This document shows positions 4,217 to 32,000 of a stretch of 32,000 nt of DNA, piece after piece; position 1 is the first letter of the stretch; every line of letters starts with the position of its first letter. The notes beneath the pieces are model-generated. The model saw only the letters and a list, made by a program, of their open reading frames with translations. It searched no databases and was not told the origin of the DNA. The DNA is from Synechococcus sp. A15-24 (GTDB lineage Bacteria; Cyanobacteriota; Cyanobacteriia; PCC-6307; Cyanobiaceae). Location: contig NZ_CP047960.1 of NCBI RefSeq assembly GCF_014280195.1, forward strand, positions 570,001 through 602,000, read 5' to 3'. Made by a program: the position numbers and the translations under genes.

Positions 4217-4383
4217 CGCCCTTGTCCTTTTTTCGAACAACGCTTTTGCCGGCTCTGATCGTCGTTCTGTTCGCACTGGCGCTGGTCGCCGTCAGCGCCA
4301 GAATCTGGCTCCCGGGAGACATGCTGGCTCCAGCTCCTGTGGGATGACACGGTCTTTTGGGTCGTCTGTTCTGGATTCAACAA

Positions 4384-5187
4384 TCACCAAAGATCTGCAT
4401 TCAACCCCTCGTTTTCATCATTGTTATCGGATGATGAAATACTTTCTTCCTCAACTTCGTTGTCAAGGGCATCATCTTCTGGGATGTCCTTGATGTTGGC
4501 AATGTACCAGCTTTGACACGCCTCAAGGCTTCCGGTGTGAGCGATCTTGCCCTTGTGAAGAACAACACCATCTTGGCAGTGCTGCTGCAAAATGTTGGAA
4601 TCAGTGTGCGCCATGATCAATGACTTTCCCGTAAGACGCTCTCGCAGTGCCTGTTGAAGCTTCAGCAAACGCTCTGATGTGGCATCTGCTTTCCAGGCAA
4701 AAATCTTGGGAATGATATAAACATCAAAATCGAAAGCCAGGGCAACAGCGAGATAAAACCTTGCCCGCATGAACTTGTTGTAAACATGCAGAGGTTTATC
4801 AAAAAAACCTTCCTCAAGATCAGCCAAGGTTTGAATGATCTCGAGATCTTTGCTCCGCTGGCCGCCATGGCCATAGACACCTTGGAGGAAGGCGGCATTC
4901 TGTCGGCCCGTCAACGAACTCAGCAACCCGCCTCGAACACCGAGAGGCCAGCTGACGTTGGTGTTGATCGTTACCTGGCCTTTCTGTACAGATGCAACGC
5001 CGGCTGCGCACTCCAGAAAGGCATGGGCTTCTCGCATGGATGAGGAGATCACCCCCACCCGCTGACCTTCCAGTAATTGCCAAGTGACGTCATTGAGCAA
5101 ACGTTTGGTTGTTTCTTTGCTGCCGCTGACGTCTCGCACCACGCTCTCCAGGCTGAGGAGTGGTCGGGTTGGAGAAGCGAGCATCAT
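4384..5187 (-). CDS. kpsT: KpsT-like polysaccharide-export ABC nucleotide-binding protein with all catalytic motifs degenerate (pseudo-ATPase)
   Basis: 267-aa ORF with KpsT/Wzt-type blocks VSWPLGVRGGLLSSLTGRQN, YNKFMRARFYLAVALAFDFDVYII and SLIMAHTD. Walker A, the Q-loop Gln, the signature SGG and the Walker B D-E are all replaced. It has an acidic C-terminal tail and lower GC than its neighbours. Confidence 0.7.
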   Translation of the reverse strand: MMLASPTRPLLSLESVVRDVSGSKETTKRLLNDVTWQLLEGQRVGVISSSMREAHAFLECAAGVASVQKGQVTINTNVSWPLGVRGGLLSSLTGRQNAAFLQGVYGHGGQRSKDLEIIQTLADLEEGFFDKPLHVYNKFMRARFYLAVALAFDFDVYIIPKIFAWKADATSERLLKLQQALRERLTGKSLIMAHTDSNILQQHCQDGVVLHKGKIAHTGSLEACQSWYIANIKDIPEDDALDNEVEEESISSSDNNDENEGLNADLW

Positions 5188-6260
5188 CCTTGGGAGAAAC
5201 CCTTCTGGCCGGTCTTGACGGTATCGGCGATCAACTGGTCACGTAAAGCTTTGAGTTGACTGCTCTCCCAAGACTGCTGATCCGATGAGATGTCGGGTGG
5301 CAGGTTTTCGGGTTGTGGAGGGAAGAAGTCATCCCACTGCATCGTTGGCCAGAAGCATTGGCAGAAGTCCCTATTCGTCTGCCCGTAGCGATGCCGAATA
5401 GTCGCTCTAAGCTCAGCGTCAAGGCCGTTAAAGGGCTCTTCGGGCCAACGTCGCTCTTTAGCGAGGACCTCGATCGCGTTTCTCAATGCTTTCTTGTGTT
5501 GTCGAAGACATAGTGGGTTCTGTTCAGCACAATAGTTATTGATTGCTTGAGCCAAGGCCACGCCAAGGCGCCCTGGTTGCTGGTTCTTTGAGCGAGCCGG
5601 TAGAGATTGTTCGGCGAGTTTCGCCGGCAGTGGAAGCTCCGCAAGCAGTTGTTCATAGGGGTCAGGCCGTTCGTGGATCGATCGACCATTGAGGTTTTGT
5701 GCGGAACCAAAAGGGATCATTACAGTCTCGATTGAGGGTTCGTCCTTGAGCCAGCTGAACAACGTCATCAAGTCACACTCACTGATGGTGTTCTCGTTCA
5801 TCACTTTCGTCACATACGACTTGAAGTCGACATAAACTTTCAAACGTTTGACCAGTTGGGTGTAACGGGAGTTGAGGTAGCTCTCCTGGTCACGGATAAA
5901 GCCAACGATCTTTAAGCGCCATCCCTGAGACTGCAATTTTTTGGCTAACCAAAGCCCTCTGGGGTGGAGGTTGTCTTTCCCTGGTTTTGTAAGGACCCAG
6001 GACAAAGCTTCATGGGAGACAAGCAGTTGACACTCCATGGCGTCTGCCCGATCCAGCCAACGACGCCATTGTTTCCACGATCCTTTCTTGGTCGCTTGGA
6101 GCAGGATCTTGTCCTGGCGTCTTCGAGCAGGCATCAGTAAACCATGGCGTCGCAGCAGTCCACGGTTTTTGCGCAGGCGCTTCTGGATGTAGGTCGAGGC
6201 GGTCTTGTGCATGCCCACATGCAGCACCACAGTTCGCTCGACGGTTGGCTGCGCGGACAT
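5184..6260 (-). CDS. Sulfotransferase-like P-loop protein (hypothetical, polysaccharide-modification type)
   Basis: Start assigned to the internal ATG at 6260 (MSAQPTVERTVVLHVGMHKTASTYIQ...). The GMHKTAST motif resembles the PAPS 5-prime-phosphosulfate binding loop of sulfotransferase-family proteins. Its stop overlaps the kpsT-like start (ATGA at 5184-5187). The track ORF extends to 6722, but that part runs antisense to the HEAT gene and is Arg/Pro/Ser-rich. Confidence 0.55.
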   Translation of the reverse strand: MSAQPTVERTVVLHVGMHKTASTYIQKRLRKNRGLLRRHGLLMPARRRQDKILLQATKKGSWKQWRRWLDRADAMECQLLVSHEALSWVLTKPGKDNLHPRGLWLAKKLQSQGWRLKIVGFIRDQESYLNSRYTQLVKRLKVYVDFKSYVTKVMNENTISECDLMTLFSWLKDEPSIETVMIPFGSAQNLNGRSIHERPDPYEQLLAELPLPAKLAEQSLPARSKNQQPGRLGVALAQAINNYCAEQNPLCLRQHKKALRNAIEVLAKERRWPEEPFNGLDAELRATIRHRYGQTNRDFCQCFWPTMQWDDFFPPQPENLPPDISSDQQSWESSQLKALRDQLIADTVKTGQKGFSQG

Positions 6261-6334
6261 GAGCGACTCAACGGTGGTTGAATTCTCCCCGATCGACTTG
6301 TTCGTGCGGTGGTTTGTCGCTTTACGATCCGAGT

Positions 6335-7144
6335 ATGAGCGAAAGCGACTCCACGAAACGCGATCAGGGGTTGTCCAGCCTTTCACTGGATCCAGATTTG
6401 CTGGCGGAAGAGCTGGCCGCTGAACAGGACATCGACCCCCTTGATGCGATCGAGCCCGAGGAGTCACAGATCGACTCCCAGGGTGTGGCCAGGGCATGTG
6501 ATCAAGGGCTGGTTTGGCTTCAGCAGGGGCATGACCAGCGACTTCAAGGGTTGAGGATTTTCTGCGAGCACCGGGATCCCCGTGCTGTTCCTCTCCTGCT
6601 CGATTTGTTGAAGCGGCCTTGCCCGGTAGAACGGATGAGTGCCGTTTATGCCCTGGGTCGTAATCCGTCTCCTCCTGCTGTCGAGCCGTTGCTGAGCCTG
6701 CTCCAATCCGATGGCAATGCATACGTTCGCAAGGCCTCGGCCTGGAGCCTGGGAAATTATCCGGATGCTCCGATCCTCAATCCGTTGATACGAGCGCTGC
6801 AGGCCGATGTGGCGGCGGTGCGGATCTGGTGCCCTGGGTCTCTGGCTGAAGCCGGGAGCCGATCACCGGCCAAGGCCGATCCCGCAGCCGGTCAACTCTT
6901 GGTCAGTCTCTCCATCGATAGCGAGCCCGTGGTGCGTAGCAACAGCATCTGGGCGCTTGGTCGTCTTTACGAGCAACTGGTGGCTCCCAGGCAACTGGAG
7001 CTGGTGGAGGCACTGGTGTCTGCTCTGCTCCACGACGGTGAGGTATCTGTCCGCGATGAGGCCCGCACAGCCCTTGAACAACTGGAAGATCCGAGTGTTC
7101 TTGAACGATTGCAGACCTTGATCGATGAAGGCTTCCTGAGCTGA
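6335..7144 (+). CDS. HEAT-repeat protein (PBS-lyase HEAT-like repeats)
   Basis: Repeated A-V-x-A-L-G/R-x-A-x-x-L-G units (RMSAVYALGRNPSPPAVEPLLSLL, YVRKASAWSLGNYPDAPILNPLIRAL, VVRSNSIWALGRL, VRDEARTALEQL). The first ATG in frame is at 6335; the track start at 6278 is a TTG. Confidence 0.8.
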   Translation: MSESDSTKRDQGLSSLSLDPDLLAEELAAEQDIDPLDAIEPEESQIDSQGVARACDQGLVWLQQGHDQRLQGLRIFCEHRDPRAVPLLLDLLKRPCPVERMSAVYALGRNPSPPAVEPLLSLLQSDGNAYVRKASAWSLGNYPDAPILNPLIRALQADVAAVRIWCPGSLAEAGSRSPAKADPAAGQLLVSLSIDSEPVVRSNSIWALGRLYEQLVAPRQLELVEALVSALLHDGEVSVRDEARTALEQLEDPSVLERLQTLIDEGFLS

Positions 7145-19642: not shown

Positions 19643-21040
19643 TCAGCGGTGGGGTGAGGCCATCGTGGCTGGATCGATCAACTGGTCAAACCGTTCGCCT
19701 GTGATCGCTCCGGATTGCATCGCGGCCTCCCGAAGCGTCAGTCCGTCTCGGTGGGCGTGCTGGGCGATCGCACAGGCTTTTTCGTAGCCGATCTCCGGCG
19801 TCAAAGCCGTCACCAGCATCAGGGATCGCTCCACGTAGAACGCGATCCGGTCACGGTCTGGTTCCATCCCGCTCACCAGATTCAGCCGGAAACACCGGCA
19901 GGCGTCCTGCAGCAGACGGATCCCCTCGATCAGGTTGAAGCCGATCAGGGGCTTGTAGACGTTCATCTGCAGATGCCCCCCAGCACCAGCCGCCGCCACG
20001 GCTGCATCCATGCCGATCACCTGGGTGCAGACCATGGCCATGGCCTCGCACTGGGTTGGATTCACCTTGCCCGGCATGATTGAGCTGCCCGGTTCATTGG
20101 CGGGCAACAGCAGTTCCCCTAGCCCAGCCCTGGGTCCGCAGGCCAGCAGGCGGATGTCATTGGCGATGGTGAGCAGCGTCACGGCCAGACGCCGCAGCTG
20201 AGCCATGGTCTGCAACAGGGCGTCATGGCCCGCCATCACGGCAAACAGGTTGTTCGCCGGCTGAAAGTCTGATCCCGTTCGGCTGGCGAGTTCAGCACAA
20301 ACCTCGTCGGCAAATCGGTCCGGCGTGTTTAAACCACTGCCGACGGCTGTGCCTCCGAGTGGCAGAGCCAGAAGGTCTTGATGGGCTGTGGTCAGCCAAT
20401 GGACGCCGTCGCTGAGTCGGTCGCGCCAGGCGCTGACTTCATCGCTAAGTCGCAGCGGTACTGCGTCCTGCAGATGGGTCCGCCCGATCTTGATTATGTC
20501 CTGCCAGGCATCGGCCTTGGCATCGAGACTCGCGATCAGCCGCTTCAGCTCTGGCAGCAGATCCTGCTGCAGCTGTAGAGCCGCAGCCACATGGATCGCT
20601 GCCGGGAAAACGTCATTTGTGGACTGGGACCGGTTGATGTGGTCATTGGGATGGAGGGGACGGTGCGAGCCGAGGCTCTCTCCGGAGTGCAGAGCAGCGA
20701 GGTTGCTGATCACCTCATTCACGTTCATGTTCGTCTGCGTGCCGCTGCCGGTCTGCCAGACACTCAGAGGAAAGTGGTCATCGTGCTGGCCTGTGTGGAT
20801 CGCCTGGCCCGCCCGTTCGATCAAGGCCACCTGTTGGTCGTTCAACAGACCATGGCGACCGTTCACAGCCGCGCAGCACTGTTTGATCCGTGCCAGGGCA
20901 TGAATCAGCTCCGCTGGAATCTTTTGATGACCGATGGCGAAGTTGTTGAGGGATCGCTGGGTCTGGGCTCCCCAGAGCGCTGCAGCGGGGACGTCGACAG
21001 CTCCCATGCTGTCGTGCTCCTGCCTCATCGGTTGGCCCAT
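19643..21040 (-). CDS. fumC: Class II fumarate hydratase (FumC)
   Basis: Fumarate lyase signature GSSIMPGKVNPTQCEA and N-terminal DSMGAVDVPAAALWGAQTQRS. The start is ATG 21040 or 21028. The track start at 21085 would overlap the divergent neighbouring gene. Confidence 0.92.
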   Translation of the reverse strand: MGQPMRQEHDSMGAVDVPAAALWGAQTQRSLNNFAIGHQKIPAELIHALARIKQCCAAVNGRHGLLNDQQVALIERAGQAIHTGQHDDHFPLSVWQTGSGTQTNMNVNEVISNLAALHSGESLGSHRPLHPNDHINRSQSTNDVFPAAIHVAAALQLQQDLLPELKRLIASLDAKADAWQDIIKIGRTHLQDAVPLRLSDEVSAWRDRLSDGVHWLTTAHQDLLALPLGGTAVGSGLNTPDRFADEVCAELASRTGSDFQPANNLFAVMAGHDALLQTMAQLRRLAVTLLTIANDIRLLACGPRAGLGELLLPANEPGSSIMPGKVNPTQCEAMAMVCTQVIGMDAAVAAAGAGGHLQMNVYKPLIGFNLIEGIRLLQDACRCFRLNLVSGMEPDRDRIAFYVERSLMLVTALTPEIGYEKACAIAQHAHRDGLTLREAAMQSGAITGERFDQLIDPATMASPHR

Positions 21041-21074
21041 TTGAGAATGCCGATCCCAATCGACAATCGTATGC

Positions 21075-21638
21075 ATGCCCTTCACCTGCCTCGCTGAGGC
21101 CAGTCATTGCTGCACGGTTGTGCTGCCCGGTGGCGAGAAGGCTGTGCTGCGGAGGTTTTTCCGGCGCCCGAAGCGATCAATGGCCGCCCTGCTCACCCGA
21201 CAGCGGATGGACTGCAAGGGCGATGGTCGCTTCCTCTACGCATCGCGGCCGTTTCAGCTCCTGCGATTTGAAATCAGGCCAGAGGTGCTGTTTGCCGCGC
21301 AGTGGTCGGATCAAGCCAAGGGGCTGGAGATTGCCTTTGAGGACTGCCGGATTCATGGCCTTGGCGCCATGCAGAACGCCATCCGCTTCGAGTGCACGGC
21401 GTTGCTTGTCCCCAAGCAGGAGGGTGTGGAGGCTCAGGCTCGAGCGGTGGTTCTTTTGTCGTCGGACAGTCCGTTGACTGCGCTGCCGACTGGCCTGCGC
21501 CAACGTTTGGCTACGCAGGCGTTGCAGCTGGTGTTTGCGCGGCTGGAGCGACGCTGCCAGGGCGGGCTGAAACGGGCCTTGCTGGATTGGATTGCGGAGG
21601 ATGCAATGGGGCGTGCTGATCTCAAGCGTGAGAGTTAA
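21075..21638 (+). CDS. Conserved cyanobacterial hypothetical protein (DUF1997-like)
   Basis: 187-aa ORF with core-like GC content. The family name is recalled from sequence style (GRFLYASRPFQLLRFEIRPEVLFAAQW) and was not verified. Confidence 0.55.
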   Translation: MPFTCLAEASHCCTVVLPGGEKAVLRRFFRRPKRSMAALLTRQRMDCKGDGRFLYASRPFQLLRFEIRPEVLFAAQWSDQAKGLEIAFEDCRIHGLGAMQNAIRFECTALLVPKQEGVEAQARAVVLLSSDSPLTALPTGLRQRLATQALQLVFARLERRCQGGLKRALLDWIAEDAMGRADLKRES

Positions 21639-21661
21639 AGTCTTGCGACCAATCCGGTGAC

Positions 21662-22483
21662 ATGAGCAAAATGCGAGCCGGATTTGTCGATCAGATCAAG
21701 TCAAGACTTGATCGCCTTTGGTTGCAAATCAGAATCGTTCTCGCGCTTTCTGAGACGGAGTTCGTCCTTAGGGCTGAAAAGGGATCCTTCGGTGTTTGGG
21801 GTGTCTTGTTTGAACCCTTGGCGTTGATGATGACCTTGTTAGCACTCAGGATTTTGATTCGGTTGAAGTCCACTGATTTGCTGAGTCCAGTGATCTGGCT
21901 TGCTTGCGGGATCGCACTTCTATATATGTTCAGAAAAATAGGAATCAAGGCATTAACAGGTGTTTCGAAGCGTCAGAAATTCTTTTTTTACCGTCGAATT
22001 CGTCCCCTGGACACGTTGTTAGCGTCGGCCTTGATTGAAGCCAGAATTCATGGTTCTATTCTGGTTTTGGTCTTCATTAGTGTTTCGTTTTGGAGTTGGC
22101 AGTTCAAGCTGGATGATCCAGCACTTGTTCTTATTGATTTCATTCTCACGATTGCTCTTGGCTTGGGGGTTGGCATCAGTGCTTTGGTGATCGGTCACCG
22201 CATCCCGATTGTTAAAACATTGACGAAATTCGGGATTAATCGATTGTTGCTTTGGACCTCTGGAATTTTTTATGCTACCTACACACTTCCTGGGCCGATA
22301 CGTCCACTAGTGACGTGGAACCCACTGCTTCATTCGGTTGAGTTGCTGCGACATGGAATTAATGTGGCCTATCCAATACCTGGAATCAGTCTGCAGTATC
22401 TGTTTGCGTGTAGTTCACTGAGCTGCGGGTTTGGACTACTGTTCTATTTCCTCAACGAGGCTCTCCTGCTCGCCGATGACTGA
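21662..22483 (+). CDS. kpsM: Capsule/polysaccharide-export ABC-2 permease (KpsM-like)
   Basis: 273-aa six-helix ORF with KpsM-type blocks RPLDTLLASALIEARIH and WNPLLHSVELLRHGI. Confidence 0.82.
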   Translation: MSKMRAGFVDQIKSRLDRLWLQIRIVLALSETEFVLRAEKGSFGVWGVLFEPLALMMTLLALRILIRLKSTDLLSPVIWLACGIALLYMFRKIGIKALTGVSKRQKFFFYRRIRPLDTLLASALIEARIHGSILVLVFISVSFWSWQFKLDDPALVLIDFILTIALGLGVGISALVIGHRIPIVKTLTKFGINRLLLWTSGIFYATYTLPGPIRPLVTWNPLLHSVELLRHGINVAYPIPGISLQYLFACSSLSCGFGLLFYFLNEALLLADD

Positions 22484-23699
22484 ACAGCCGCGTGTCAAAC
22501 GGACGGCCGGAATTTTTCCGAAACTCGGAGAAGGAGCTTCCTGGTTCGGTAACTCCTCAGATGATCCCTCCAGTTCAGACACGTCACAGCTCCGCTCTGG
22601 GCTACAGGGATCGTTGAAAGGTCTGATGAATTCGGGAACCTTGGCTGCTGCTTTTGTCGTCCTCTCGGCGATGTATTGCTTTGGTGTGGGCCGTGATCGC
22701 TATCAAGCGACGTCCGAATTTGTCATCAAGCAGCCGCTGCCCCCGGCTTCAGCCTCCACCATGGTTCTTGGCTCGATGCAGAGCTCCAGCGTGCTCTCGT
22801 CTCTGGAGGACGGTCGTTATTTGCAGGTTTACCTGAAATCCAATGCTGTGAAGCAGGCGGTTTTCCCTGATCCATCTGCGTTTAAGAGGACCTATGCACC
22901 TCAGGCTCCAGATCAATGGAGTGGCTTACGTCGTGATGCCAATGACCAGGAGCAGCTTGCTTTCTTCCGCCAGCAGCTCGATGTGATTCCCCAGGAACTC
23001 TCAGGGACCATCGTTCTATCCACAAGTGCGTTCACCGCAGACGATGCCTATCGCCTCAATTCCGATCTTCTGAAACAGTCGCAGCGCTTCGTTAATGAGG
23101 TGAATCAGTCGATCAGTGCGGATCAACAGAAGTTTGCTGAGGAGCAGGTGGCCTTCGCGAAGACCCGTCTCACCACGGCCACCAATGCGCTTGAAGCTTT
23201 TCAGGATCTTTACGGACAACTGGATCCTTTGGGAGAACAGACGGCTACCACTGGCTTCATTACTGGCTTGGAATCTCGGCTGGTTGATCTGAAGGTTGAG
23301 GAAGCCAGTCTTCGACGCCAGTTCCGTGATCCCAATGCTCCAGAGGTTGCTTTTGTCGCAGACCAAGTACGTGAGCTCGAGCGACAGATTCAGGAAGAGC
23401 GCCAAAAGGCCGTTGGAGCCGGGGGACGTGATCTGAACAAACTTGCTACGCAAGCCAGTCGCCTCCAAGGAGATGTGGATTTTGCACGGGAATCCTTGAG
23501 TTCAGCCATGCGTGCGGCTGACAACAGCAGGATGGAAAGCCAGCGTCAGCTGAAATTCATCGTGATGCTGAGCAAGCCGCAGATGCCCACCGGCCCTGAA
23601 ACGTCATGGCGTTGGAAGGCCTTTCTGTCATGCCTGGGTGTTTTGATTGTGGTCTGGGGCGTTGGAGGATTCATGTTGACGGCATTACGGCGTTATTAA
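22476..23699 (+). CDS. kpsE: Capsule polysaccharide export inner-membrane adaptor (KpsE-like, PCP-3 type)
   Basis: ATG 22476 overlaps the kpsM stop by 8 nt. It has an N-terminal helix followed by RYQATSEFVIKQ, a long coiled central region, and a C-terminal LSKPQMPTGP block plus a final helix, as in KpsE. Confidence 0.75.
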   Translation: MTEQPRVKRTAGIFPKLGEGASWFGNSSDDPSSSDTSQLRSGLQGSLKGLMNSGTLAAAFVVLSAMYCFGVGRDRYQATSEFVIKQPLPPASASTMVLGSMQSSSVLSSLEDGRYLQVYLKSNAVKQAVFPDPSAFKRTYAPQAPDQWSGLRRDANDQEQLAFFRQQLDVIPQELSGTIVLSTSAFTADDAYRLNSDLLKQSQRFVNEVNQSISADQQKFAEEQVAFAKTRLTTATNALEAFQDLYGQLDPLGEQTATTGFITGLESRLVDLKVEEASLRRQFRDPNAPEVAFVADQVRELERQIQEERQKAVGAGGRDLNKLATQASRLQGDVDFARESLSSAMRAADNSRMESQRQLKFIVMLSKPQMPTGPETSWRWKAFLSCLGVLIVVWGVGGFMLTALRRY

Positions 23700-23705
23700 A
23701 GTTTT

Positions 23706-23722
23706 AGAGTATTCAATACTCT
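23706..23722. terminator. 17-nt perfect palindrome agagtattcaatactct, 7 nt after the kpsE stop; possible terminator hairpin or operator
   Basis: agagtatt and aatactct are exact reverse complements around a central c, followed by ttta. It lies in the 168-nt AT-rich convergent gap between kpsE and the 979-aa glycosyltransferase gene. Confidence 0.3.
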
Positions 23723-23867
23723 TTATACAGATCGGTTGTATTTTGTTTTTGAGTTCAATGGATAGCCATATTGGGTTTAAGGATAAGAATGATTCCCATA
23801 CGAGCTTATAGATTAAAGTTTCTTGCGGAACGTTTTTGTCTCGTTTGGTAAGTTGAGCGTTTATTAT

Positions 23868-26807
23868 TCAATTATCTTGCTGTACTCGTGTTAGCCCTTC
23901 AAGATAATTTTCGATTTGTCGCGCTAATCGACGATTGCCGCGACGAATGGTTTCCTTCCAGTCTTTAATGTCTACCTCATGAGGGTTGTCTCGAAGCAAG
24001 CTAACCTTGATGAAGGGGAACTCATGATCCTCAATGAGTGATTTCCACTCAGCATGAAGAATATTGCCATTGGCATTTTTTGAATAAAGGCTTTCAAGAT
24101 TCATCCCATTCTCTTTGAGAAGGACAGAGAGTCCGACCTCATAGTTTTTGACAATGCTGCGTTTTTCATCCCAACACATTATGTTGTCCCAGAATTGCCA
24201 GAATGACGGACAAGAAACAGCGCGACGTTTAAACATTAGAAATGCAGATTGTAGATGGGGTTCGTACATGAGATTGTCCGTTAAACCAATCACATCCGCT
24301 TGGCTATTGGCAAGGCGATTGATCAGGCCGGTGAGGGGACGAATCGGACCCCAAAAACTATCGTTACAGAGCAATACAGACTTTCTTTGATCGATTAGAT
24401 CGCGACAAAACCTTAGACCAGTCATCCAGCTGCCAAAGTCATATCCTTCATTACCTCGAATGATTAGAGCATCGCTAACATTCTTAAGAGCTGCCAAATC
24501 ATGGTGGTGTTGCAACAACGATGGTGTCGCAGCAACGACTTGAATATAAAAATGGCGTCTGTACTTCCTTAACAGATCAAGAATGTCAGAGCGTATTGGT
24601 TTGTCAGGATTGGAGTCATATTGCGCAAATATCAGTGGTATGCGTTGGTCATTTGTTCTTAATGAACGCCTCCAGGTGAATAACACTGCTTCTCGTGCTG
24701 GCCTGAGAGGCACCACTTGTTTCAGGAGTGGTTCGTATCTCGTTGAATGATGATGAAGGAGGGGGCTGATTAATGGATCACCTTTCGCATAAATTGTTTT
24801 GTGCTTTTGGCGAAGGCGTCCTGATTCGCGTTGATGCCGTGCCCAAGCATATCCAACTTGATCCTTCCCACGACTGAGTGACTCATAGTGAGTGATTGAT
24901 GCATGTGGCGTCACAACAATGGCACCCCCTGCATCCCTGAGTCTGAGGCAAAGGTCGACATCATTAAAGACAACGGCGAGTTTTTCATCAAATCCACCAA
25001 CGAGGTCAAAACACTCGGCTTTCACCATCAAACAGGCTGCAGAGGCTGCGGAGAACTCTTCTTGTGTTCTGAGAGGTAGAAGGCTGGCTATGACCTCTTG
25101 CTCGTTAAGGTGCTTACCTGGTTCAAGAACGCAACGACGCTCTCCTGGAATAATGACAACTCCTTGATGTTGAATGCTTCCATCGGGATAATTAAGCCTT
25201 GAGCCGACGGCAACAGTTTTAGGGTGTGCAAAGGGATCTAGAAGTGCATTAAGGACACTTCCGGAGATAAATTCGATATCATTGTTGAGGAATAGCAGAA
25301 AATCTCCTCTACATAATTGGCGGGCTTTGTTGTTTAGTCGTGAGTAATTAAATTCTTCGTCGAGACGAATGCATTGAATATTGTCTTCCTCGATAACATC
25401 TCTTATCCATTCTTTTGTTGAATTTTTTGCGCTTCCGTTGTCAATTAGAACGATTTCATAATTACGATTTTTACCGGCATTAAGCTTGATCGAATTAACA
25501 CATGCCCTAGTTAATTCTACTTGATCTCTAAATGGAATCAATATGGAAATCAAGGATGATTTATCTGTAGGACGAGACAAGTCATGGCATCCTACCTGTA
25601 ACGGGTTGGGCTTGATTCCCCTCTCTATTCCAAAATATTGTTTGGCATGCTGACTTCTGATACGACCGATCTCATCTAATTGCTGATCACTCAATGGACA
25701 TCTTTCCCTGGGCCAGCCTTGTTCAGGTATTGAAGGATTCTGAGAGCTTTGATGCTTGACGAGTGCTATATGACAGTGGGTCGTCTTGATCGGATCGCGA
25801 GTTGTCTGTAGAAGTATGTCCAGACGTAATGCTTCTAGGCAGGTATAACTTGGAGCAAATTTACACCGCCTTAATTGAGAATAAGGTAGCGTTAGAAGTC
25901 CTCCAATGCCTCCGCGGGTACACAGACGAATGGCTGACACTGGGCTTCGGTATTGCCGATGTTCATATCCGAGCCCATCATTCCAAAGTTGGTAAACAAT
26001 AATGTCATCGCAGGTCAACACAGTGTCCGCTTTTGTTTGTTGGAGTTGTCCCGCTAAAGCATGTAGGGCTCCATTGGCCAAGATATCGCTGGCATGACAA
26101 ATAGTGATCCACTCTGCAGAGTTTTCTCTTAGCAGATTTGATAAAGAATTCATATTTGTCAAAGAGCAAGAAACCACATCGTTCCAACCACCTACAACAG
26201 CTAGAGATTGTGCTTGCTGTGTTGTTCCATCAATCACTAAAAGTAGATGCTTTGTTGTTAAAATCAAGGATTTTATTGTGGGTAACTTTGTTGGATGATA
26301 TCGATCAAGGCCTGTCGCAACAGATTCTTGCCGACGGAAATGATCCCACCCCTCCGTCGCGAGATGTTCGAGCAAAGAGATTTTATTAGTGCGTCTGATT
26401 TGTCTCTGTGTTTTGTTCAGGCCTGCGTCGTAGGCTCCAATGGGTATTGGCGGTAGATCTCCGTAAAGAGACAGATGACCATTTAAAATCTGATTCAGCG
26501 TCCCACTCACTAGTAACTCATTGATTGATGAGAGGTGCCGATGTTGAAGTAGTAAGGGGATTTTTTGAATTCCATCTTCCAGTGGGTTCCATGTTGTTGG
26601 CTCCAACAGTAGGGAGATGGGTAAATATCTTGGGTTAAGTAGATGAGAGTCTAAATAATCGTGCAAGCTTGCAAGATCTGATTTGATTAAATTAAGATCT
26701 ATGCCGATACGTTTGAATAGTCTGAGTTGTTTTTGTATAGAGCCAACAGAGATTCTTCCCTTTCTCCAATCTTGAAAAGATTTTGACCAGTGATCGTTGG
26801 GATTCAT
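23868..26807 (-). CDS. 979-aa three-domain glycosyltransferase: degenerate GT2-like, GT2, and RgpF-like (rhamnan synthesis F) domains
   Basis: The central GT2 domain reads ISILIPFRDQVELTRACVNSI...IVLIDNGS...FLNNDIEF...GSIQHQGVVI...FNDVDLCLRL. The C-terminal domain, with NEGYDFGSWMTGL and LQSAFLMFKR, resembles the RgpF family. An N-terminal region of about 400 aa has GT2-like remnants but lacks the catalytic motifs. Confidence 0.8.
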   Translation of the reverse strand: MNPNDHWSKSFQDWRKGRISVGSIQKQLRLFKRIGIDLNLIKSDLASLHDYLDSHLLNPRYLPISLLLEPTTWNPLEDGIQKIPLLLQHRHLSSINELLVSGTLNQILNGHLSLYGDLPPIPIGAYDAGLNKTQRQIRRTNKISLLEHLATEGWDHFRRQESVATGLDRYHPTKLPTIKSLILTTKHLLLVIDGTTQQAQSLAVVGGWNDVVSCSLTNMNSLSNLLRENSAEWITICHASDILANGALHALAGQLQQTKADTVLTCDDIIVYQLWNDGLGYEHRQYRSPVSAIRLCTRGGIGGLLTLPYSQLRRCKFAPSYTCLEALRLDILLQTTRDPIKTTHCHIALVKHQSSQNPSIPEQGWPRERCPLSDQQLDEIGRIRSQHAKQYFGIERGIKPNPLQVGCHDLSRPTDKSSLISILIPFRDQVELTRACVNSIKLNAGKNRNYEIVLIDNGSAKNSTKEWIRDVIEEDNIQCIRLDEEFNYSRLNNKARQLCRGDFLLFLNNDIEFISGSVLNALLDPFAHPKTVAVGSRLNYPDGSIQHQGVVIIPGERRCVLEPGKHLNEQEVIASLLPLRTQEEFSAASAACLMVKAECFDLVGGFDEKLAVVFNDVDLCLRLRDAGGAIVVTPHASITHYESLSRGKDQVGYAWARHQRESGRLRQKHKTIYAKGDPLISPLLHHHSTRYEPLLKQVVPLRPAREAVLFTWRRSLRTNDQRIPLIFAQYDSNPDKPIRSDILDLLRKYRRHFYIQVVAATPSLLQHHHDLAALKNVSDALIIRGNEGYDFGSWMTGLRFCRDLIDQRKSVLLCNDSFWGPIRPLTGLINRLANSQADVIGLTDNLMYEPHLQSAFLMFKRRAVSCPSFWQFWDNIMCWDEKRSIVKNYEVGLSVLLKENGMNLESLYSKNANGNILHAEWKSLIEDHEFPFIKVSLLRDNPHEVDIKDWKETIRRGNRRLARQIENYLEGLTRVQQDN

Positions 26808-27712
26808 TGTTTTTTCTTGCTTGCCAGTTTGAGAAGTCGTCGTACTACTGCAGGGAATAGCCCCTCTTTGTCAGAAGTTATGACTTCTAATTGTCTTTTT
26901 TCTTCGCTCATGTTCGTTCCGGAATCTTCAGTTACAACCTCATCATGATCACCTCTTACATTATGATCTTCTATCTCTGGCTTATTAGATATCGGTTGAA
27001 CCGATAAGGATTCTTTTAACTCCTTATTCTCTTCTACAAGCAGCGCATATTTAGCTCTTTGTTTTCTTAGAGACTTTTGTAGTCGTTCGTTTTCCCGCGC
27101 AAGGTACTCATAGTTATTTTGGATCTGTGCTAATTGATTTAAATTATTTTTCAATTCTTCAAAACTTGCTTCGCGGTCTAGGTTGACCTCCCACCAGTCC
27201 ATGAGTGCGAGATCAATCAATGAGCCTTGGCTTAACCTTTGTAGATAGTTGCTGTCAGCTTCCAGACCAAACAAGCATGATTTCAGTTCTAGATCAAGGT
27301 AAATATCGATAATTCTTGGTTCTTTTCTCGCAATCTCTAGGCTTAGTAAGCTGGAAAGGGGCTTTGGGCTAGGGAAGTTAATACTTTTGTCTAGCTGTGG
27401 ATTCTCACCATTACAAAGTCTTATGATCGATGTACTGTCAAGCGAATTCAGGCGCCAGCTTGACGAAATATGTTTGTATTTTGCAGATAACAAGGATAAC
27501 TCTTCGTAATATGCGCGAATTTCATTGCATGTTGTTGCGGTGCTTTCTTCAAGTCGTTTTTGTTCAAGCACTTGATTGGGCGCCGAATAAATTAATAGCA
27601 CATTTTGAGGTTCATTGTCAGAATTGACTGATGTAAGTGGCTTGAGTCCTGCTTTGGCTAGTTTGTCTTTTAGAGATGAAAGAATATTTGTTGTCGAATA
27701 CCAGTACTGCAT
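26804..27712 (-). CDS. Hypothetical protein with a C-terminal coiled coil, ATGA-coupled to the 979-aa glycosyltransferase
   Basis: ATG 27712 (MQYWYSTTNILSSLKDK...). It has a heptad-like stretch FEELKNNLNQLAQIQNNYEYLARENERLQKSLRKQRAKYALLVEENKELKESL. Its stop overlaps the glycosyltransferase start at 26804-26807. No family recognised. Confidence 0.6.
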   Translation of the reverse strand: MQYWYSTTNILSSLKDKLAKAGLKPLTSVNSDNEPQNVLLIYSAPNQVLEQKRLEESTATTCNEIRAYYEELSLLSAKYKHISSSWRLNSLDSTSIIRLCNGENPQLDKSINFPSPKPLSSLLSLEIARKEPRIIDIYLDLELKSCLFGLEADSNYLQRLSQGSLIDLALMDWWEVNLDREASFEELKNNLNQLAQIQNNYEYLARENERLQKSLRKQRAKYALLVEENKELKESLSVQPISNKPEIEDHNVRGDHDEVVTEDSGTNMSEEKRQLEVITSDKEGLFPAVVRRLLKLASKKKQ

Positions 27713-27738
27713 TTGATTCCTGATCCTTACACGCAGTC

Positions 27739-27744
27739 TATAAT
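27739..27744 (+). promoter_or_regulatory. Consensus -10 hexamer TATAAT in the 54-nt divergent control region
   Basis: A perfect TATAAT lies 22 nt upstream of ATG 27767. A TTGATT -35-like hexamer at 27713-27718 has a 20-nt spacer, which is longer than ideal. Confidence 0.3.
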
Positions 27745-27766
27745 GCAGAACGCTCCTGAAGCTCAC

Positions 27767-29359
27767 ATGACGTCCAGTCTATGCCTGAGTGTTTTAGTAG
27801 GCTGTCCAGTTTCACCAACGCAGCTCCCGGAAGGCCCTTGTTTGATCATTGATGCTGAGTCAATCGATAAGAAGGAATTGATTGCTCAGGAATCCTTTTA
27901 TGCACATTATCGTGAATTGTCGGCCGACGATGTAGTACTTCTCAATCAGACGGTGATATCAGAATTTGATCATCAGATTGTTGAATGGCATAACTTCTCA
28001 GACAGGCGATTCAATGGACCTTCTCAATTATCAGAGTTTTCCGAACAATATCCAAATCTAAGATTAATTGAAAGCAGGAAGATTGAAGGTATCACTCTTT
28101 CTACTGTATTGGTAGATCAAAAAATTCTATCCGATTCACTTTCAACCTTTCAGCTCATTTTACGTGAGGGTGATCCGTTAGTTGCTCTTCAAAGTGCGAA
28201 GGAGTGGTTGGCCCGATGTACTCGTATCTCTTTGCGTGGTTTAGTCACTAGCTCTAAATCTCGTGAGGCTGCTGAGGCATTTTTGGGGGCATCGGGCTTT
28301 TGCAAATCATCGGTTGATTCATGTGTATGGACTCCTGAGCTTGAGGTGTCGTCACTGCATCTATCCTTAATCAGATGTGGTTTGTTGGCCTTATTTAATG
28401 CTGATGTCTATCGAAAATTATATCCTCAGACGAAGGAAATGACAGATGTTGAGCTGATTAACCACTGGTTATCACAGCCTGATTTTCGAGAGATCGCCAA
28501 GGAGATCGACAAGAATACCCACAATTCATTAGATAGAGATGGAATATTGGCCTTATTTAATGCTGATGTCTATCGAAAATTATATCCTCAGACGAAGGAA
28601 ATGACGGATGTTGAGCTGATTGACCACTGGTTATCACAGCCTGATTTTCGAGAGATCGCCAAGGAGATCGACAAGAATACCCACAATTCATTAGATAGAG
28701 ATGGAATATTGGCCTTATTTAATGCTGATGTCTATCGAAAATTATATCCTCAGACGAAGGAAATGACGGATGTTGAGCTGATTGACCACTGGTTATCACA
28801 GCCTGATTTTCGAGAGATCGCCAAGGAGATCGACAAGAATACCCACAATTCATTAGATAGAGATGGAATATTGGCCTTATTTAATGCTGATGTCTATCGA
28901 AAATTATATCCTCAGACGAAGGAAATGACGGATGTTGAGCTGATTGACCACTGGTTATCGCAGCCTGATTTTCGAGATGTATCTAAATTAATGAATGATG
29001 CTATTCAGCGTAACCCAACTCCTCTTGCTGAATTGACGGACCAAGATCCCGTACTTCAGTTGTTGCATAATATTTTCCCTTTTGATTTTTATCGCTCTCA
29101 AAGATCAGATCTCTCACAGATCTCCAACAGAGAGTTGATCCATCACTATTGGACAAATGGGCAATATGAGGGAATTGATCTCTCGGAATCAAATGTCAAA
29201 AATGTACTCGATAAAGATCAATCTTTGCAGGTCAACCGTCTCACGACTCGTATCCATGAACTAGAGCATCTTTTATCGTGCGCCAACGCACAGATTAGTG
29301 CAATGCAGAAGTTGATTGTTAGTTCACGAGATTCGGGAGCTGCCAATGAACAAGACTGA
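27767..29359 (+). CDS. Hypothetical protein with 3.7 tandem 54-aa repeats and a C-terminal coiled coil
   Basis: ATG 27767 (alternatives at 27743 and 27713). The layout is a roughly 205-aa N-domain, then repeats of LALFNADVYRKLYPQTKEMTDVELIDHWLSQPDFREIAKEIDKNTHNSLDRDGI, a degenerate copy (FPFDFYRSQRSDLSQISNRELIHHYWTNGQYEGIDLS), and a coiled coil (RLTTRIHELEHLLSCANAQISAMQKL). Confidence 0.7.
   Translation: MTSSLCLSVLVGCPVSPTQLPEGPCLIIDAESIDKKELIAQESFYAHYRELSADDVVLLNQTVISEFDHQIVEWHNFSDRRFNGPSQLSEFSEQYPNLRLIESRKIEGITLSTVLVDQKILSDSLSTFQLILREGDPLVALQSAKEWLARCTRISLRGLVTSSKSREAAEAFLGASGFCKSSVDSCVWTPELEVSSLHLSLIRCGLLALFNADVYRKLYPQTKEMTDVELINHWLSQPDFREIAKEIDKNTHNSLDRDGILALFNADVYRKLYPQTKEMTDVELIDHWLSQPDFREIAKEIDKNTHNSLDRDGILALFNADVYRKLYPQTKEMTDVELIDHWLSQPDFREIAKEIDKNTHNSLDRDGILALFNADVYRKLYPQTKEMTDVELIDHWLSQPDFRDVSKLMNDAIQRNPTPLAELTDQDPVLQLLHNIFPFDFYRSQRSDLSQISNRELIHHYWTNGQYEGIDLSESNVKNVLDKDQSLQVNRLTTRIHELEHLLSCANAQISAMQKLIVSSRDSGAANEQD
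28385..28978 (+). repeat. Tandem direct repeat, 162-bp unit x 3.67 copies, in frame within a CDS
   Basis: Units start at 28385, 28547, 28709 and 28871. Copies 2 and 3 are identical over 162 nt. Copy 1 differs at 2 positions (one synonymous, one N/D). Partial copy 4 (108 nt) differs at 1 position. Confidence 0.97.
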
Positions 29360-30647
29360 TCAGATACTTGCCTGTCGTGTCTTGGTGAATGATTATTTAT
29401 CAGGAAGATGGCAGAATGTTATCAATACAGTCTGTTCGCTGAACGATTCAGCGGAATTTGATAACTGTTCCACTCTTCGTGACCTCGCGCGACTTCTTTT
29501 AAGTTTATCTCCTTCAGAAATTTTGAAGGAGGATTGGAAGCCTGCTTTAGTGTCGCAGCGCGCCTCTTTTACTGAAGCACGTCTTCGGTACTGCGCAACT
29601 CATTTACTTGGTGCTTGCAATAATCTTGCGTGCAGAAATGATCAACAATATAGCTACAAGCTTCAATTATTTTGCATTAGCTTAAGCGACTTGCTCAAGT
29701 CTGATGCTGATTTTATACTTGTTTCTGATATATTTTCATTTTCCGACTCTTTCATATCCCTCAGTCAAAGTATTCGTATATTCTATTTGGCTTATAGGCG
29801 TCGTTTGCATGAGTCATTTCCTCAACAGATGACGGTTGTTTTAGGGATGCACCGTAGTGGAACATCAGCGTTAACTGGACTGCTTGGTAATTTAGGCATT
29901 TCAGGACCTAAGGATCCATTAGGTGCCACGGAAAATAATCTGTTGGGATACTGGGAATCAACTTCTTTAGTTACTTCTTCTGATCGATTTTTGTTATCTC
30001 AAAATAGCCATTGGTCCCAACTTTACCACTGGTCTTTTGGTTGGTGGAAATCAGCGGCGGCTCTAGACTGGATTGATTCTTATTGGCACGATTTGCAAAA
30101 TGCTTACAATACGAATGAACACTTCGTCTTGAAAGATCCTCGCCTTTGTATTCTGCTCGAGGGCATAATTCCATGCCTAGTTGATTCGCTACTGCAGTTA
30201 GATTTTTTGTTGATATTGCGCTCTCCTGTTGAGGTTGTTATGTCCTTGTGTAAGGCAGAGGAAATTTCTCCATACGATGCTCTTAATTTGTGGATCGGAT
30301 CAGTATTTCGCGCAGAATGTAGTTCACGTCCGTATTCTCGCAATATTCTCACGTACTACCAGCTCCTTAGTAGGCCACAAACTATTTTGGATTCATTCGG
30401 CTTGAACTGGAATCAAAGCTTTATGGAATCCAGGCTTGATCAAGCAACATCCTTTTTAAAGACTTCATTGTATCGAACCAAGGTTGATAACGTAAGGGAA
30501 TCGTTCGTGGCAACAAATCCTGAGTTGACTAGTCTTCTTGTTTTGGCTGAACAGATTTTTGATTGTTTTCAACATCCAACCCCAGACATTGCTCGTACAT
30601 CAGAGAAATTAAGGTACCAGTGGGTCGAAATCTTGGCAGATCGTTAG
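29346..30647 (+). CDS. Sulfotransferase-family protein with an N-terminal domain of about 170 aa and unknown function
   Basis: ATG 29346 overlaps the upstream stop by 14 nt. The PAPS-binding-loop-like motif VVLGMHRSGTSALTGLL is followed by YWES and later FVLKDPR (3-prime-phosphate binding-like), typical of bacterial sulfotransferase-family proteins. Confidence 0.65.
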   Translation: MNKTDQILACRVLVNDYLSGRWQNVINTVCSLNDSAEFDNCSTLRDLARLLLSLSPSEILKEDWKPALVSQRASFTEARLRYCATHLLGACNNLACRNDQQYSYKLQLFCISLSDLLKSDADFILVSDIFSFSDSFISLSQSIRIFYLAYRRRLHESFPQQMTVVLGMHRSGTSALTGLLGNLGISGPKDPLGATENNLLGYWESTSLVTSSDRFLLSQNSHWSQLYHWSFGWWKSAAALDWIDSYWHDLQNAYNTNEHFVLKDPRLCILLEGIIPCLVDSLLQLDFLLILRSPVEVVMSLCKAEEISPYDALNLWIGSVFRAECSSRPYSRNILTYYQLLSRPQTILDSFGLNWNQSFMESRLDQATSFLKTSLYRTKVDNVRESFVATNPELTSLLVLAEQIFDCFQHPTPDIARTSEKLRYQWVEILADR

Positions 30648-30675
30648 CAAACTCTTCTGTAAATAACTTTGCAGC

Positions 30676-32000
30676 TTACTGTCGCTGATAGTAATCTTTC
30701 ATCCTCCTGAAATTGGACCTCAGTTCAATTCCTTGCATAACGCTTTCTGGTGAAGTGTTGAAACTAAAATTTTCATGAATCTTTGTTAGATTTGGATTGT
30801 AAAATAAATCACTTGGTAGTTCCCCATTACTTTGAATGTCGTATTGATTTAGCATGAAGTTTATCTCTCTCTTGAACCGTTCTTTCTTCTCGGGAGAGTC
30901 CTCAGCTCCGCGGGATATTGATTCGTGGTGAAACAGCTCAGCATACGGGGTGAAAATATTTCGATATCCTCTTCCGTGAACCCTTATGCAAAAGTCGACA
31001 TCGTTAAATGCGATTGTGAGGTCTTGTTCATTGAGGCCGCCGACTTCGTTGAAAATTTCTCTGCGAATTGCGAGACATGCTGCAGTTACTGCTGTCATCT
31101 GTTGTACATATTGAAGCCTGTCGACATAACCAGGACTATCTCCCGGAAAGTATTTATGGGCATGACCGGCGACTTGGCCAATTCCAATAACTACGCCTCC
31201 ATGCTGAATAGTCCCATTTGAATAGTATAACTTTGCACCGACACATCCAACGTCTGGCCTTGAAGTGTGGGAAACAATTTCTTGGAGCCATTCGCCAGAT
31301 ATGACCTCGACATCATTATTGATCAAAGTAACAACATCTGCTTTTGATTGTCGGACTGCATAATTATTGATGGCCGAGTAGTTGAACTTCTTGTTGTATT
31401 TTATTATATTTATTTTTTCGCCATGCGCCCTCTTCAGTTTTTTGAATAGATTCTTCGTGGCGACTTCTTGGCTCTGGTTGTCAACAATTGTGATTGTGTA
31501 GTTCGTGTATGTCGTCTTGGCAATGATTGAATCCACTGCGAGATTCAATACCTCTGCTTGATCTCTAGTGGGGATGATGAGCTCAACAGATGGTGGCTTC
31601 TCTGATGTATGCCACTGGCAGGTGAATCGGTTCCTGGCCTTGATTCGGGCTGTCGCCCTTACGCCTCCACGTCGATGCTGCTCGTCTAGGAAATTCTGGA
31701 CTGCCTTGTGACCGCTTTCAGTTGTGTAATCCTTGCTGTCTGGGTTGCTGGCGGTTGATTCGGAATGTGCTCGCCAGTGGTACAAGACTCTAGGGATGTG
31801 AATAATTTGGTCCGGGGAAGATTCCAGGACAGTTCTGAGTGCAAGATCGTGATCTTGGCTTCCCTCGAAGCCAACTCGGAAGCCACCAATTTGTTTGAGG
31901 ATCTCCCTTCTGTAAACACCCAAGTGTGAGATAAAATTGTATGACAATAAAAGATCAATGTTAAAAGCTGGCTTGAAGTGTGGGCATGAACGCATTCCAT
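30676..32000 (-). CDS. Tandem-GT2 glycosyltransferase, N-terminus beyond the window edge
   Basis: The visible N-terminal part is the tail of one GT2 domain (GGFRVGFEGSQDHDLALR...IHIPRVLYHWR). A complete second GT2 domain follows (VELIIPTRDQAEVLNLAVDSI...ITIVDNQS...LINNDVEV...GTIQHGGVVIGIG...FNDVDFCIR). The frame is still open at 32000. Confidence 0.85.
   Translation of the reverse strand, partial: GMRSCPHFKPAFNIDLLLSYNFISHLGVYRREILKQIGGFRVGFEGSQDHDLALRTVLESSPDQIIHIPRVLYHWRAHSESTASNPDSKDYTTESGHKAVQNFLDEQHRRGGVRATARIKARNRFTCQWHTSEKPPSVELIIPTRDQAEVLNLAVDSIIAKTTYTNYTITIVDNQSQEVATKNLFKKLKRAHGEKINIIKYNKKFNYSAINNYAVRQSKADVVTLINNDVEVISGEWLQEIVSHTSRPDVGCVGAKLYYSNGTIQHGGVVIGIGQVAGHAHKYFPGDSPGYVDRLQYVQQMTAVTAACLAIRREIFNEVGGLNEQDLTIAFNDVDFCIRVHGRGYRNIFTPYAELFHHESISRGAEDSPEKKERFKREINFMLNQYDIQSNGELPSDLFYNPNLTKIHENFSFNTSPESVMQGIELRSNFRRMKDYYQRQ

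Follow-up and report, generated by a model that had tools for sequence, protein, structure and literature searches.

Does a group of four genes in a marine cyanobacterium encode a device that measures the length of a surface polysaccharide and ends its growth? We have examined this question in a 32,000-nt stretch of the genome of Synechococcus sp. A15-24 (the whole stretch is called the window below, and its first letter is position 1). The window contains a divergent group of four open reading frames (ORFs) coding for a large glycosyltransferase (GT), two proteins with coiled coils and a sulfotransferase (ST). A sequence-only reading of this DNA had proposed, by analogy with WbdA/WbdD of Escherichia coli O9a, that sulfation could cap the polymer and that the coiled coils, possibly together with a repeat array, could set its length. 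The answer we favour, at a rough probability of 0.42, is that the four genes would specify a cytoplasmic complex that polymerises and modifies a sulfated surface polysaccharide containing rhamnose, exported by an adjacent Kps-type ATP-binding cassette (ABC) system, and that this complex would work as a split ruler with a sulfate cap. Judged by sequence, fold and conservation, we regard as established a predicted rhamnose-glycan polymerase complex, an intact sulfotransferase gene (ORF4), two coupled and co-conserved gene pairs, and the recurrence of this ST clade in coiled-coil proteins of the terminator type; from these we infer sulfate capping, docking of ORF4 on ORF3, anchoring by ORF2 and control of chain length.

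The four genes and the spacer between them are arranged as follows.

23868..26807, minus strand: GT979, a 979-aa multi-domain GT (Pfam RgpF 3e-22, Glycos_transf_2 2e-17).
26804..27712, minus strand: ORF2, a 302-aa coiled-coil protein (ORF call, alignment, heptad scan).
27713..27766, no strand: divergent intergenic spacer of 54 nt, with a conserved TATAAT at 27739-27744 (six-locus DNA alignment).
27767..29359, plus strand: ORF3, a repeat and coiled-coil protein of 530 aa, or 538 aa from the alternative ATG at 27743 (ORF call, family alignment).
29346..30647, plus strand: ORF4, a 433-aa ST (AlphaFold2 model and Foldseek, homologues with PF13469).

The layout had been described correctly in its coordinates, overlaps and spacer: two overlapping pairs diverge from the 54-nt region. 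On the minus strand, the coiled-coil protein ORF2 is coupled to the multi-domain GT through the overlap ATGA (26804-26807), and on the plus strand the start of ORF4 (29346) overlaps the end of ORF3 (29359) by 14 nt. In some relatives ORF3 is annotated from an in-frame ATG further upstream (27743 here), which would leave a spacer of 30 nt. This start was favoured from the annotation of those relatives and was then ruled out when the DNA of six loci was aligned: conservation there is confined to the ATG at 27767 and the upstream TATAAT at 27739-27744, and the 54-nt spacer therefore stands. A consensus promoter scan of the spacer gave nothing exceeding chance; because the divergent spacer is so short, at least one promoter must overlap a neighbouring gene. 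According to a hydrophobicity check, none of the four module proteins has a transmembrane segment.

The four genes, their orientation, overlaps and chromosomal site recur in eight other marine Synechococcus loci, with ST identity down to 31%. The gene order in WH8103 and several metagenome contigs is helicase, fumC, DUF1997, kpsM, kpsE, GT (~980 aa, minus), ORF2 (minus), ORF3 (plus), ST (plus), GT (~800 aa, two GT2 modules, minus), rmlB, rmlD, rmlC and rmlA, and it holds even where identity falls to 31-37% for the ST and 42-52% for ORF2. The trio of ORF2, ORF3 and ST is kept in picocyanobacteria at a greater distance (Synechococcus UW140, Synechococcus ATX 2A4 and Cyanobium NAT70; loci L001-L003), and it was found together in all picocyanobacterial loci examined. 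At the level of gene layout, these overlaps and their recurrence show both gene pairs to be translationally coupled and the module to be kept across marine Synechococcus. One divergent marine locus (L088) carries an extra 263-aa gene without a Pfam match between kpsE and the large GT (4258-5049 of that locus), which is not in the window. A literature search on the WH8102 orthologues (SYNW0640-0646) found nothing relevant.

ORF4 consists of a helical N-domain (aa 1-155) and an ST domain (aa 160-433; nt 29823-30644). The window protein matched nothing in Pfam or NCBIfam, even at E<=10, nor any PDB sequence at lax thresholds; its homologues number more than 1800, and some of them carry PF13469. 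Its AlphaFold2 (AF2) model has a mean confidence (pLDDT) of 89.8 and a predicted template modelling score (pTM) of 0.90, and in a Foldseek search of this model against the PDB the top 22 matches were STs or close fold relatives (best E 1.9e-4), the best structural matches all being STs, namely Stf1, OLS-ST, Stf9, TPST and CurM-ST. In the alignment of the 39-member ST family, the loop GMHRSGTS (aa 167-174; nt 29844-29867), KDPR, R292 and S300 are invariant. On the basis of general knowledge of this fold, we take GMHRSGTS, R292 and S300 to bind 3'-phosphoadenosine 5'-phosphosulfate (PAPS), the first as the 5'-phosphosulfate loop and the latter two as the Arg and Ser for the 3'-phosphate. The modelled fold thus identifies ORF4 as an ST with its predicted PAPS-binding motifs intact, and the earlier assignment is borne out by the fold match and the invariant motifs, though Pfam is silent on the window protein. 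Because the matches of proteobacterial homologues begin near residue 150-165, the helical domain of aa 1-155 is not present in them.

The relatives of this enzyme outside cyanobacteria are most informative about its possible role. Eighty genome loci were retrieved by the ST profile and their ORFs analysed. In the non-cyanobacterial relatives the ST domain is usually N-terminal with heptad-patterned sequence next; this pattern extends directly after the ST domain for at least 100 aa in 34 of 78 non-cyanobacterial ORFs and for at least 200 aa in 17 of the 78. Heptad coverage above 25% was found in 40 of 65 testable ST ORFs, compared with 10 of 788 other long ORFs of the same loci. Two formats recur. 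The first is an ST-coiled coil protein of ~500-930 aa, which is the layout of WbdD; the second is an ST-coiled coil-GT2/GT4/GT1 protein of 1237-1827 aa, which is the layout of WbbB and of Klebsiella pneumoniae O7 ORF6, and its GT modules were confirmed by Pfam in five proteins. Six ST loci, all proteobacterial, have within 8 kb a Wzt ATPase that carries the carbohydrate-binding domain Wzt_C (PF14524); among them is L018, where the ST is followed by a coiled coil of ~340 aa and then by three GT modules. In loci L068, L070 and L076, ST-coiled-coil proteins stand beside KpsE and a short KpsT-like ATPase, and a Kps-type exporter is therefore compatible with the terminator architecture. The extended coiled coil has been described as the characteristic marker of chain-terminating proteins, and the modules of such systems may be spread over one to several polypeptides (PMC11231755); by the coiled-coil criterion of that work, this ST clade looks like a terminator family. 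In the full-text literature pairing WbdD or WbbB with sulfotransferase or sulfate, we found no description of an ST terminator. Four non-cyanobacterial loci (L035, L053, L075 and L079) have the ST domain at the C-terminal end, for example at aa 847-1080 of 1190, the reverse of the common order.

ORF3, the co-translated partner of ORF4, is composed of an alpha/beta N-domain (nt ~27776-28342), the 54-aa repeats, one FPFDFYR..HY..G..EG motif (nt ~29075-29185) and a C-terminal coiled coil (nt ~29225-29323). Tandem Repeats Finder detected at 28385-28977 on the plus strand a 162-nt unit in 3.7 copies, 99% identical, which corresponds in frame to 54 aa. That this array is expandable had been supposed from one sequence, and the comparison of strains agrees: whole 54-aa units are cleanly gained or lost in the alignment with everything else conserved, the homologues are 376, 430, 484 or 538 aa long (422 or 530 aa if called from the second ATG), and there are 1, 2, 3 or 4 copies by strain. 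In complete genomes, one copy is found in WH8102, WH8103, RS9915 and A18-46.1, two in BOUM118, A15-28 and A18-40, and four in A15-24. Two metagenome scaffolds have N runs exactly within the repeat array of ORF3 orthologues (8802-9013 of L085 and 4633-4700 of L086), so that the gene falls into two separate calls (194/164 aa, with a further part uncalled); such N runs are an assembly symptom of repeats, and copy numbers from short-read assemblies are therefore unreliable.

An exhaustive HMMER search for the ORF3 family yielded 125 representatives, of which ~70 carry the N-domain; these carriers mostly look picocyanobacterial, as judged by sequence composition and fetched loci rather than by taxonomy. 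In the canonical build, the N-domain is followed by a variable coiled coil, one FPxxxYR..H(Y/F)..G..EG motif and, at the C-terminus, a short coiled coil that includes a conserved helix. The middle between the conserved N-domain and C-terminal helix holds ~30 to 555 aa of coiled coil, often in tandem repeats, and in the marine clade a 54-aa version of the motif, in 1-4 tandem copies, takes the place of the variable coiled coil. The N-domain occurs alone, with a coiled coil, or fused to GT modules (GT2+GT1, or WbsX+RgpF). In protein P0385 it is followed by ~190 aa of heptad coverage and a CmcI rhamnosyl O-methyltransferase domain, and in P0412 by ~120 aa of heptad coverage and a Methyltransf_24 domain; no fusion with an ST was found among the 125 representatives.

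The AF2 model of the N-domain has a confident alpha/beta fold (pLDDT 88.6). Five residues of this domain (G20, W82, R89, N105 and G143) are invariant, and three more (D87, Q142 and P145) are almost so. No significant structural neighbour came from Foldseek against the PDB (best E 0.35, TM-score ~0.3), a PDB profile search was empty, and 36 family members showed no consistent Pfam match. An FkbM-like methyltransferase was considered for this domain from a strand order that is similar by eye, and was set aside as a weak lead only, with nothing but generic Rossmann proteins in Foldseek and nothing in Pfam or the PDB profile search. ORF3 as a secreted protein or lipoprotein was also considered, from a lipobox-like string LVGC, and rejected: the protein lacks any hydrophobic segment, its relatives do not keep the Cys, and this stretch forms strand 1 of the alpha/beta domain. 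Several strains have the orthologue labelled 'putative conserved secreted protein'. This annotation is probably wrong, because the protein shows neither a hydrophobic signal nor a transmembrane segment and begins with the first strand of a domain of cytoplasmic type.

ORF2, the partner of GT979, begins with a conserved N-domain (aa 1-178), which is followed by a coiled coil at aa 179-238 (nt 26999-27178) and an acidic linker that varies; it ends in a tail (aa 284-302; nt 26807-26863) that is basic and amphipathic. Within this tail lies VVRRLLKLASK, the stretch at which the hydrophobic moment of the whole protein peaks; a basic tail FPxxxAxRLxxxxxRKxQ is conserved in most homologues. The N-domain of the window protein has no significant Pfam match, and the family (95 matches) is restricted to picocyanobacteria. 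Its members range from 234 to 589 aa, with all variation in the coiled-coil and linker part; in marine lineages the coiled coil changes by 14-aa (two-heptad) units that keep the heptad register, and in Synechococcus UW140 it reaches ~300 aa and is built of ~98-aa repeats. The ORF2 and ORF3 families both have conserved ends and a length-variable middle, which is the pattern expected of a spacer whose length matters. The coiled coils claimed for both partner proteins are thus present, ~60 aa in ORF2 and ~30 aa in ORF3, but they are short.

The next question is what glycan would be made. GT979 has an N-region without a Pfam match; GT2 occupies aa 421-645 (nt 24873-25547), and aa 771-941 (nt 23985-24497) are RgpF-like, the RgpF profile being matched over its first 200 of 503 positions only. 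With a counterpart in all related loci, GT979 is by its domains a candidate component of a rhamnan-type polymerase. Another GT gene follows ORF4.

30676..32000, minus strand: second polymerase-type GT, C-terminal part, cut by the window end (orthologues ~804 aa, two GT2 modules).

In orthologous loci this gene is followed by rmlB-rmlD-rmlC-rmlA, and its product is homologous to the GT modules fused behind the ST-coiled coil in proteobacteria (E 1e-77 to 1e-127). A cytosolic polymerase with one GT module per linkage is predicted from these two proteins, GT979 with its GT2 and RgpF-like modules and the neighbour with two GT2 modules, neither having a transmembrane segment. The conserved gene order including the rml genes makes it most likely that the product is a rhamnose-containing polymer made at the cytoplasmic face.

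An export system of the Kps type adjoins the module on its other side.

21662..22483, plus strand: kpsM-like ABC-2 permease, 273 aa, at the left edge of the island described below (NCBIfam KpsM NF050053 2e-29, below the curated cut-off; Pfam ABC2_membrane; multiple hydrophobic segments).
22476..23699, plus strand: kpsE-like polysaccharide export inner-membrane protein of class PCP-3, 407 aa (TIGR01010 BexC/CtrB/KpsE 2e-50, below the cut-off).

The two genes overlap by 8 nt, and the kpsE-like protein, with orthologues of 407-412 aa, has hydrophobic segments at both its N- and C-terminus. Of the group 2 (Kps) capsule set (KpsM, KpsT, KpsE, KpsD, KpsS/KpsC), the window holds the KpsM-like and KpsE-like genes only. 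The profile matches, though both below their curated family cut-offs, place the module beside a probable ABC-exporter pathway of the Kps type.

Taking these observations together, we propose the following mechanism. ORF4 would sulfate the non-reducing end of the growing chain and so halt its elongation. Two spacer proteins would keep ORF4, which has no coiled coil of its own, at a distance from the polymerase. One of them, ORF3, would act as the shaft, with a base domain at its N-terminus, then the helical 54-aa repeat in 1-4 copies and finally a short coiled coil for oligomerisation, and ORF4 may dock on it, its co-translated partner, through the helical N-domain specific to picocyanobacteria. 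ORF2, which combines its N-domain, the ~60-aa coiled coil and the basic amphipathic tail and is co-translated with GT979, would tether the GT979 polymerase to the membrane. [quoted passage not shown]

The analogy with the ruler and terminator, on which this proposal is modelled, held in part. The link to an ABC exporter, the multi-module GTs, the ST-coiled-coil relatives and the six loci with Wzt_C speak for it, but several findings weigh against it. Neither the AF2 model nor the heptad scan shows a coiled coil in ORF4 itself, and ORF4 does not sit distally on an extended coiled coil of the same protein, the position of a terminating enzyme that the ST domain has in many non-cyanobacterial homologues; its contact with ORF3 or ORF2 is deduced only from gene overlap and co-conservation. 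By the heptad scan, the coiled coils of ORF2 (~60 aa, ~9 nm) and ORF3 (~30 aa, aa ~495-527) are short, much shorter than the WbdD ruler (~20 nm). For calling coiled coils we used a simple heptad heuristic of our own, checked against an empirical background, rather than a published predictor. The repeat unit of ORF3 (54 aa) is no coiled coil. As to export, the window lacks kpsD, kpsC and kpsS as well as an ABC ATPase gene (kpsT or wzt); no ABC ATPase was found within ±8-10 kb in any picocyanobacterial locus (L001-L003, L081-L088), and a Wzt with a cap-reading C-terminal carbohydrate-binding module (CBM) is absent from the window and from ~±10 kb of the picocyanobacterial loci. With none in the window or near these loci, the ATPase of the exporter must be encoded elsewhere. 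Most known polysaccharide STs of bacteria and cyanobacteria decorate internal residues. The lipopolysaccharide of WH8102 has been reported as simple, with a single rhamnose, and the locus probably makes another, uncharacterised surface glycan distinct from it. The proposal as a whole is built from sequence, fold and gene layout.

Several of these points give the strongest competing explanation its substance, namely that ORF4 sulfates internal residues of each repeat unit, as in a polyanionic capsule or extracellular polysaccharide (EPS), that ORF2 and ORF3 merely tether or oligomerise soluble enzymes at the membrane, and that length is set elsewhere, for example by the stoichiometry of exporter and polymerase as in the K. 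pneumoniae O2a model. We regard this explanation as a genuine contender, though one that we would not ourselves bet on. It accords with the missing coiled coil of ORF4 and the shortness of the local ones, with a Kps-type exporter that has no CBM nearby, and with the general knowledge that sulfated cyanobacterial EPS carry sulfate along the chain. Published work also lends it precedent, since stoichiometry of the O2a type sets length and the terminal pyruvate of O1 does not control it (PMC11231755). What it leaves unexplained is the frequent place of this ST clade distal on long coiled coils, ahead of GT modules and beside Wzt_C transporters, and the conserved ends with a length-variable middle in both partner families.

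A different role for ORF3 has a low probability in our judgement. ORF3 might be a glycan-binding or catalytic accessory, whose repeats and motif bind the nascent polymer so that copy number tunes avidity or processivity, and/or whose N-domain is an unrecognised enzyme, e.g. methyltransferase-like, adding a second modification. The ~40-aa motif FPxxxYR..DL....L..H(Y/F)...G..EG, for which there is no Pfam model, occurs in 4-11 copies in large multi-GT proteins, including a WsaF-like rhamnosyltransferase, and may by this distribution be a widespread undescribed glycan-associated module. It was also seen in RTX/serralysin, cadherin-like and subtilase proteins (the motif proteins being P0402, P0431, P0446, P0441 and P0421). 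Such secretion-type proteins could bind surface glycan, and the motif could therefore mean glycan binding instead of spacing, which is a further point against a ruler. The N-domain, for its part, combines a confident alpha/beta fold with the conserved polar residues D87, R89, N105, Q142 and D144; the weak neighbours that Foldseek gave for it are methyltransferases and dehydrogenases of the Rossmann type, and the O7 terminator bears an extra CBM (PMC11231755). However, the best of those Foldseek matches (E 0.35) is not significant, 0 of 36 family members have a Pfam family, and no glycine-rich motif for S-adenosylmethionine is visible in the N-domain. Sister lineages, moreover, have a plain coiled coil at the position of the repeats, which argues for spacing over binding.

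That the four genes are mere neighbours in a hypervariable island without functional coupling would suit the low-GC, island-like character of the region, but is very unlikely in view of the overlaps, the divergent layout, the chromosomal site kept at 31-52% protein identity and the fusion of the ST to GT modules elsewhere.

The setting of the module in the window deserves description. The source strain is marine, and the ORF3 protein is 100% identical to a hypothetical protein of A15-24 located on a 2.3-Mb contig. The guanine-plus-cytosine (GC) content is 0.61-0.68 across most of the first 21 kb of the window and 0.41-0.51 from ~21.6 kb to its end; within 21000-32000, the drop (from ~0.63 to 0.41-0.51) coincides exactly with the first glycan gene, from kpsM onward. 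The left part is made up of core genes, namely the end of rpoC2, a sodium:solute symporter gene, bioA, bioD, gidB, a DEAD-box helicase gene, fumC and the DUF1997 gene, and the low-GC part contains in order the KpsM-like ABC-2 permease, the KpsE-like export protein, the four module genes and the further GT cut by the window end. The core genes fumC and DUF1997 beside the island are syntenic in all related strains, and by composition and gene content the low-GC stretch resembles a hypervariable island for surface glycans whose chromosomal site is fixed. A smaller dip in GC content, the second of the window (0.53), falls at 4001-6722, where two minus-strand ORFs overlap (4384-5187, 267 aa, and 5184-6722, 512 aa); Pfam gives no match at E<=1e-5 for either.

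If the split ruler with a sulfate cap is real, several consequences follow. Terminators with coiled-coil rulers are the best-understood way in which bacteria measure a polysaccharide, and within the literature searched the known caps comprise methyl, phosphomethyl and Kdo, together with a pyruvate that does not regulate length; sulfate as a cap would be a new terminator chemistry. Because hundreds of loci matched the ST profile, such a cap may be common, as this number suggests. The wider claim, that sulfate is a previously undescribed chain-terminating cap in wide use, with fused forms in Proteobacteria, Bacteroidota and Verrucomicrobia and a split form with a 1-4-copy spacer in marine Synechococcus, is one that we consider rather unlikely at present. 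A repeat array that differs between close strains is a concrete handle on the diversification of surface-glycan length in an ecologically dominant phototroph, and if the mechanism is true, surface-glycan length would be a fast-evolving trait, plausibly under the pressure of phages and grazers. Two domains are newly defined here, the Pfam-less N-domain of ORF3 and the N-domain of ORF2 restricted to picocyanobacteria, and both travel with coiled coils and glycan enzymes.

We finally compare the module with known systems. As in the WbdD/WbdA system (E. coli O9a and K. pneumoniae O3), there is an ABC-exporter pathway with a soluble multi-module GT polymerase and a separate enzyme transferring a small group. 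In its predicted layout, ORF2 resembles the C-terminal half of WbdD, in which a coiled coil is followed by a C-terminal amphipathic helix (PMC11231755), and the ST-coiled-coil proteins of proteobacterial relatives repeat the WbdD layout directly. Unlike WbdD, however, the chemistry would be sulfate from PAPS instead of phosphate plus methyl, the enzyme and coiled coils of the window are on three polypeptides with coiled coils of 30-60 aa, and the exporter is of the KpsM/KpsE type, with no Wzt-CBM found nearby.

A second comparison is with WbbB (Raoultella terrigena and K. pneumoniae O12) and O7 ORF6. The relatives in loci L018, L076, L071, L055 and L015 have ST-coiled coil-GT2/GT4/GT1 in the same order. 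O7 ORF6 adds rhamnose by its C-terminal GT2 modules (PMC11231755), and the window locus is likewise linked to rhamnose by the RgpF-like domain and by rmlABCD in orthologous loci; the terminator domain is, in contrast, an ST instead of a Kdo transferase or methyltransferase-kinase, and the window version is unfused. In the K. pneumoniae O4 system each activity is on a separate polypeptide, and polymerase and terminator modules are spread over complex-forming proteins (PMC11231755), as we propose here, but the O4 terminator still bears a coiled coil and the window ST does not. RgpF-type rhamnan synthesis in Streptococcus and other ABC-dependent rhamnans share with the module an RgpF-like domain, dTDP-rhamnose genes, which lie by the module in orthologous loci, and ABC-type export; the module differs in its partial RgpF profile match (200/503), its cyanobacterial Kps-like partners and the added ST. 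With the mycobacterial Stf1 and Stf9 and with rhizobial and cyanobacterial EPS STs, ORF4 shares the ST fold and the PAPS-binding motifs, whereas it has no sequence match to solved structures, possesses an extra helical N-domain of 155 aa and belongs to a clade marked by coiled-coil fusions. Rather than a demonstrated member, the module is probably a variant of the known terminator and ruler strategy, one in which the terminator is an ST, the parts are split over several proteins and the spacer is expandable by repeats.

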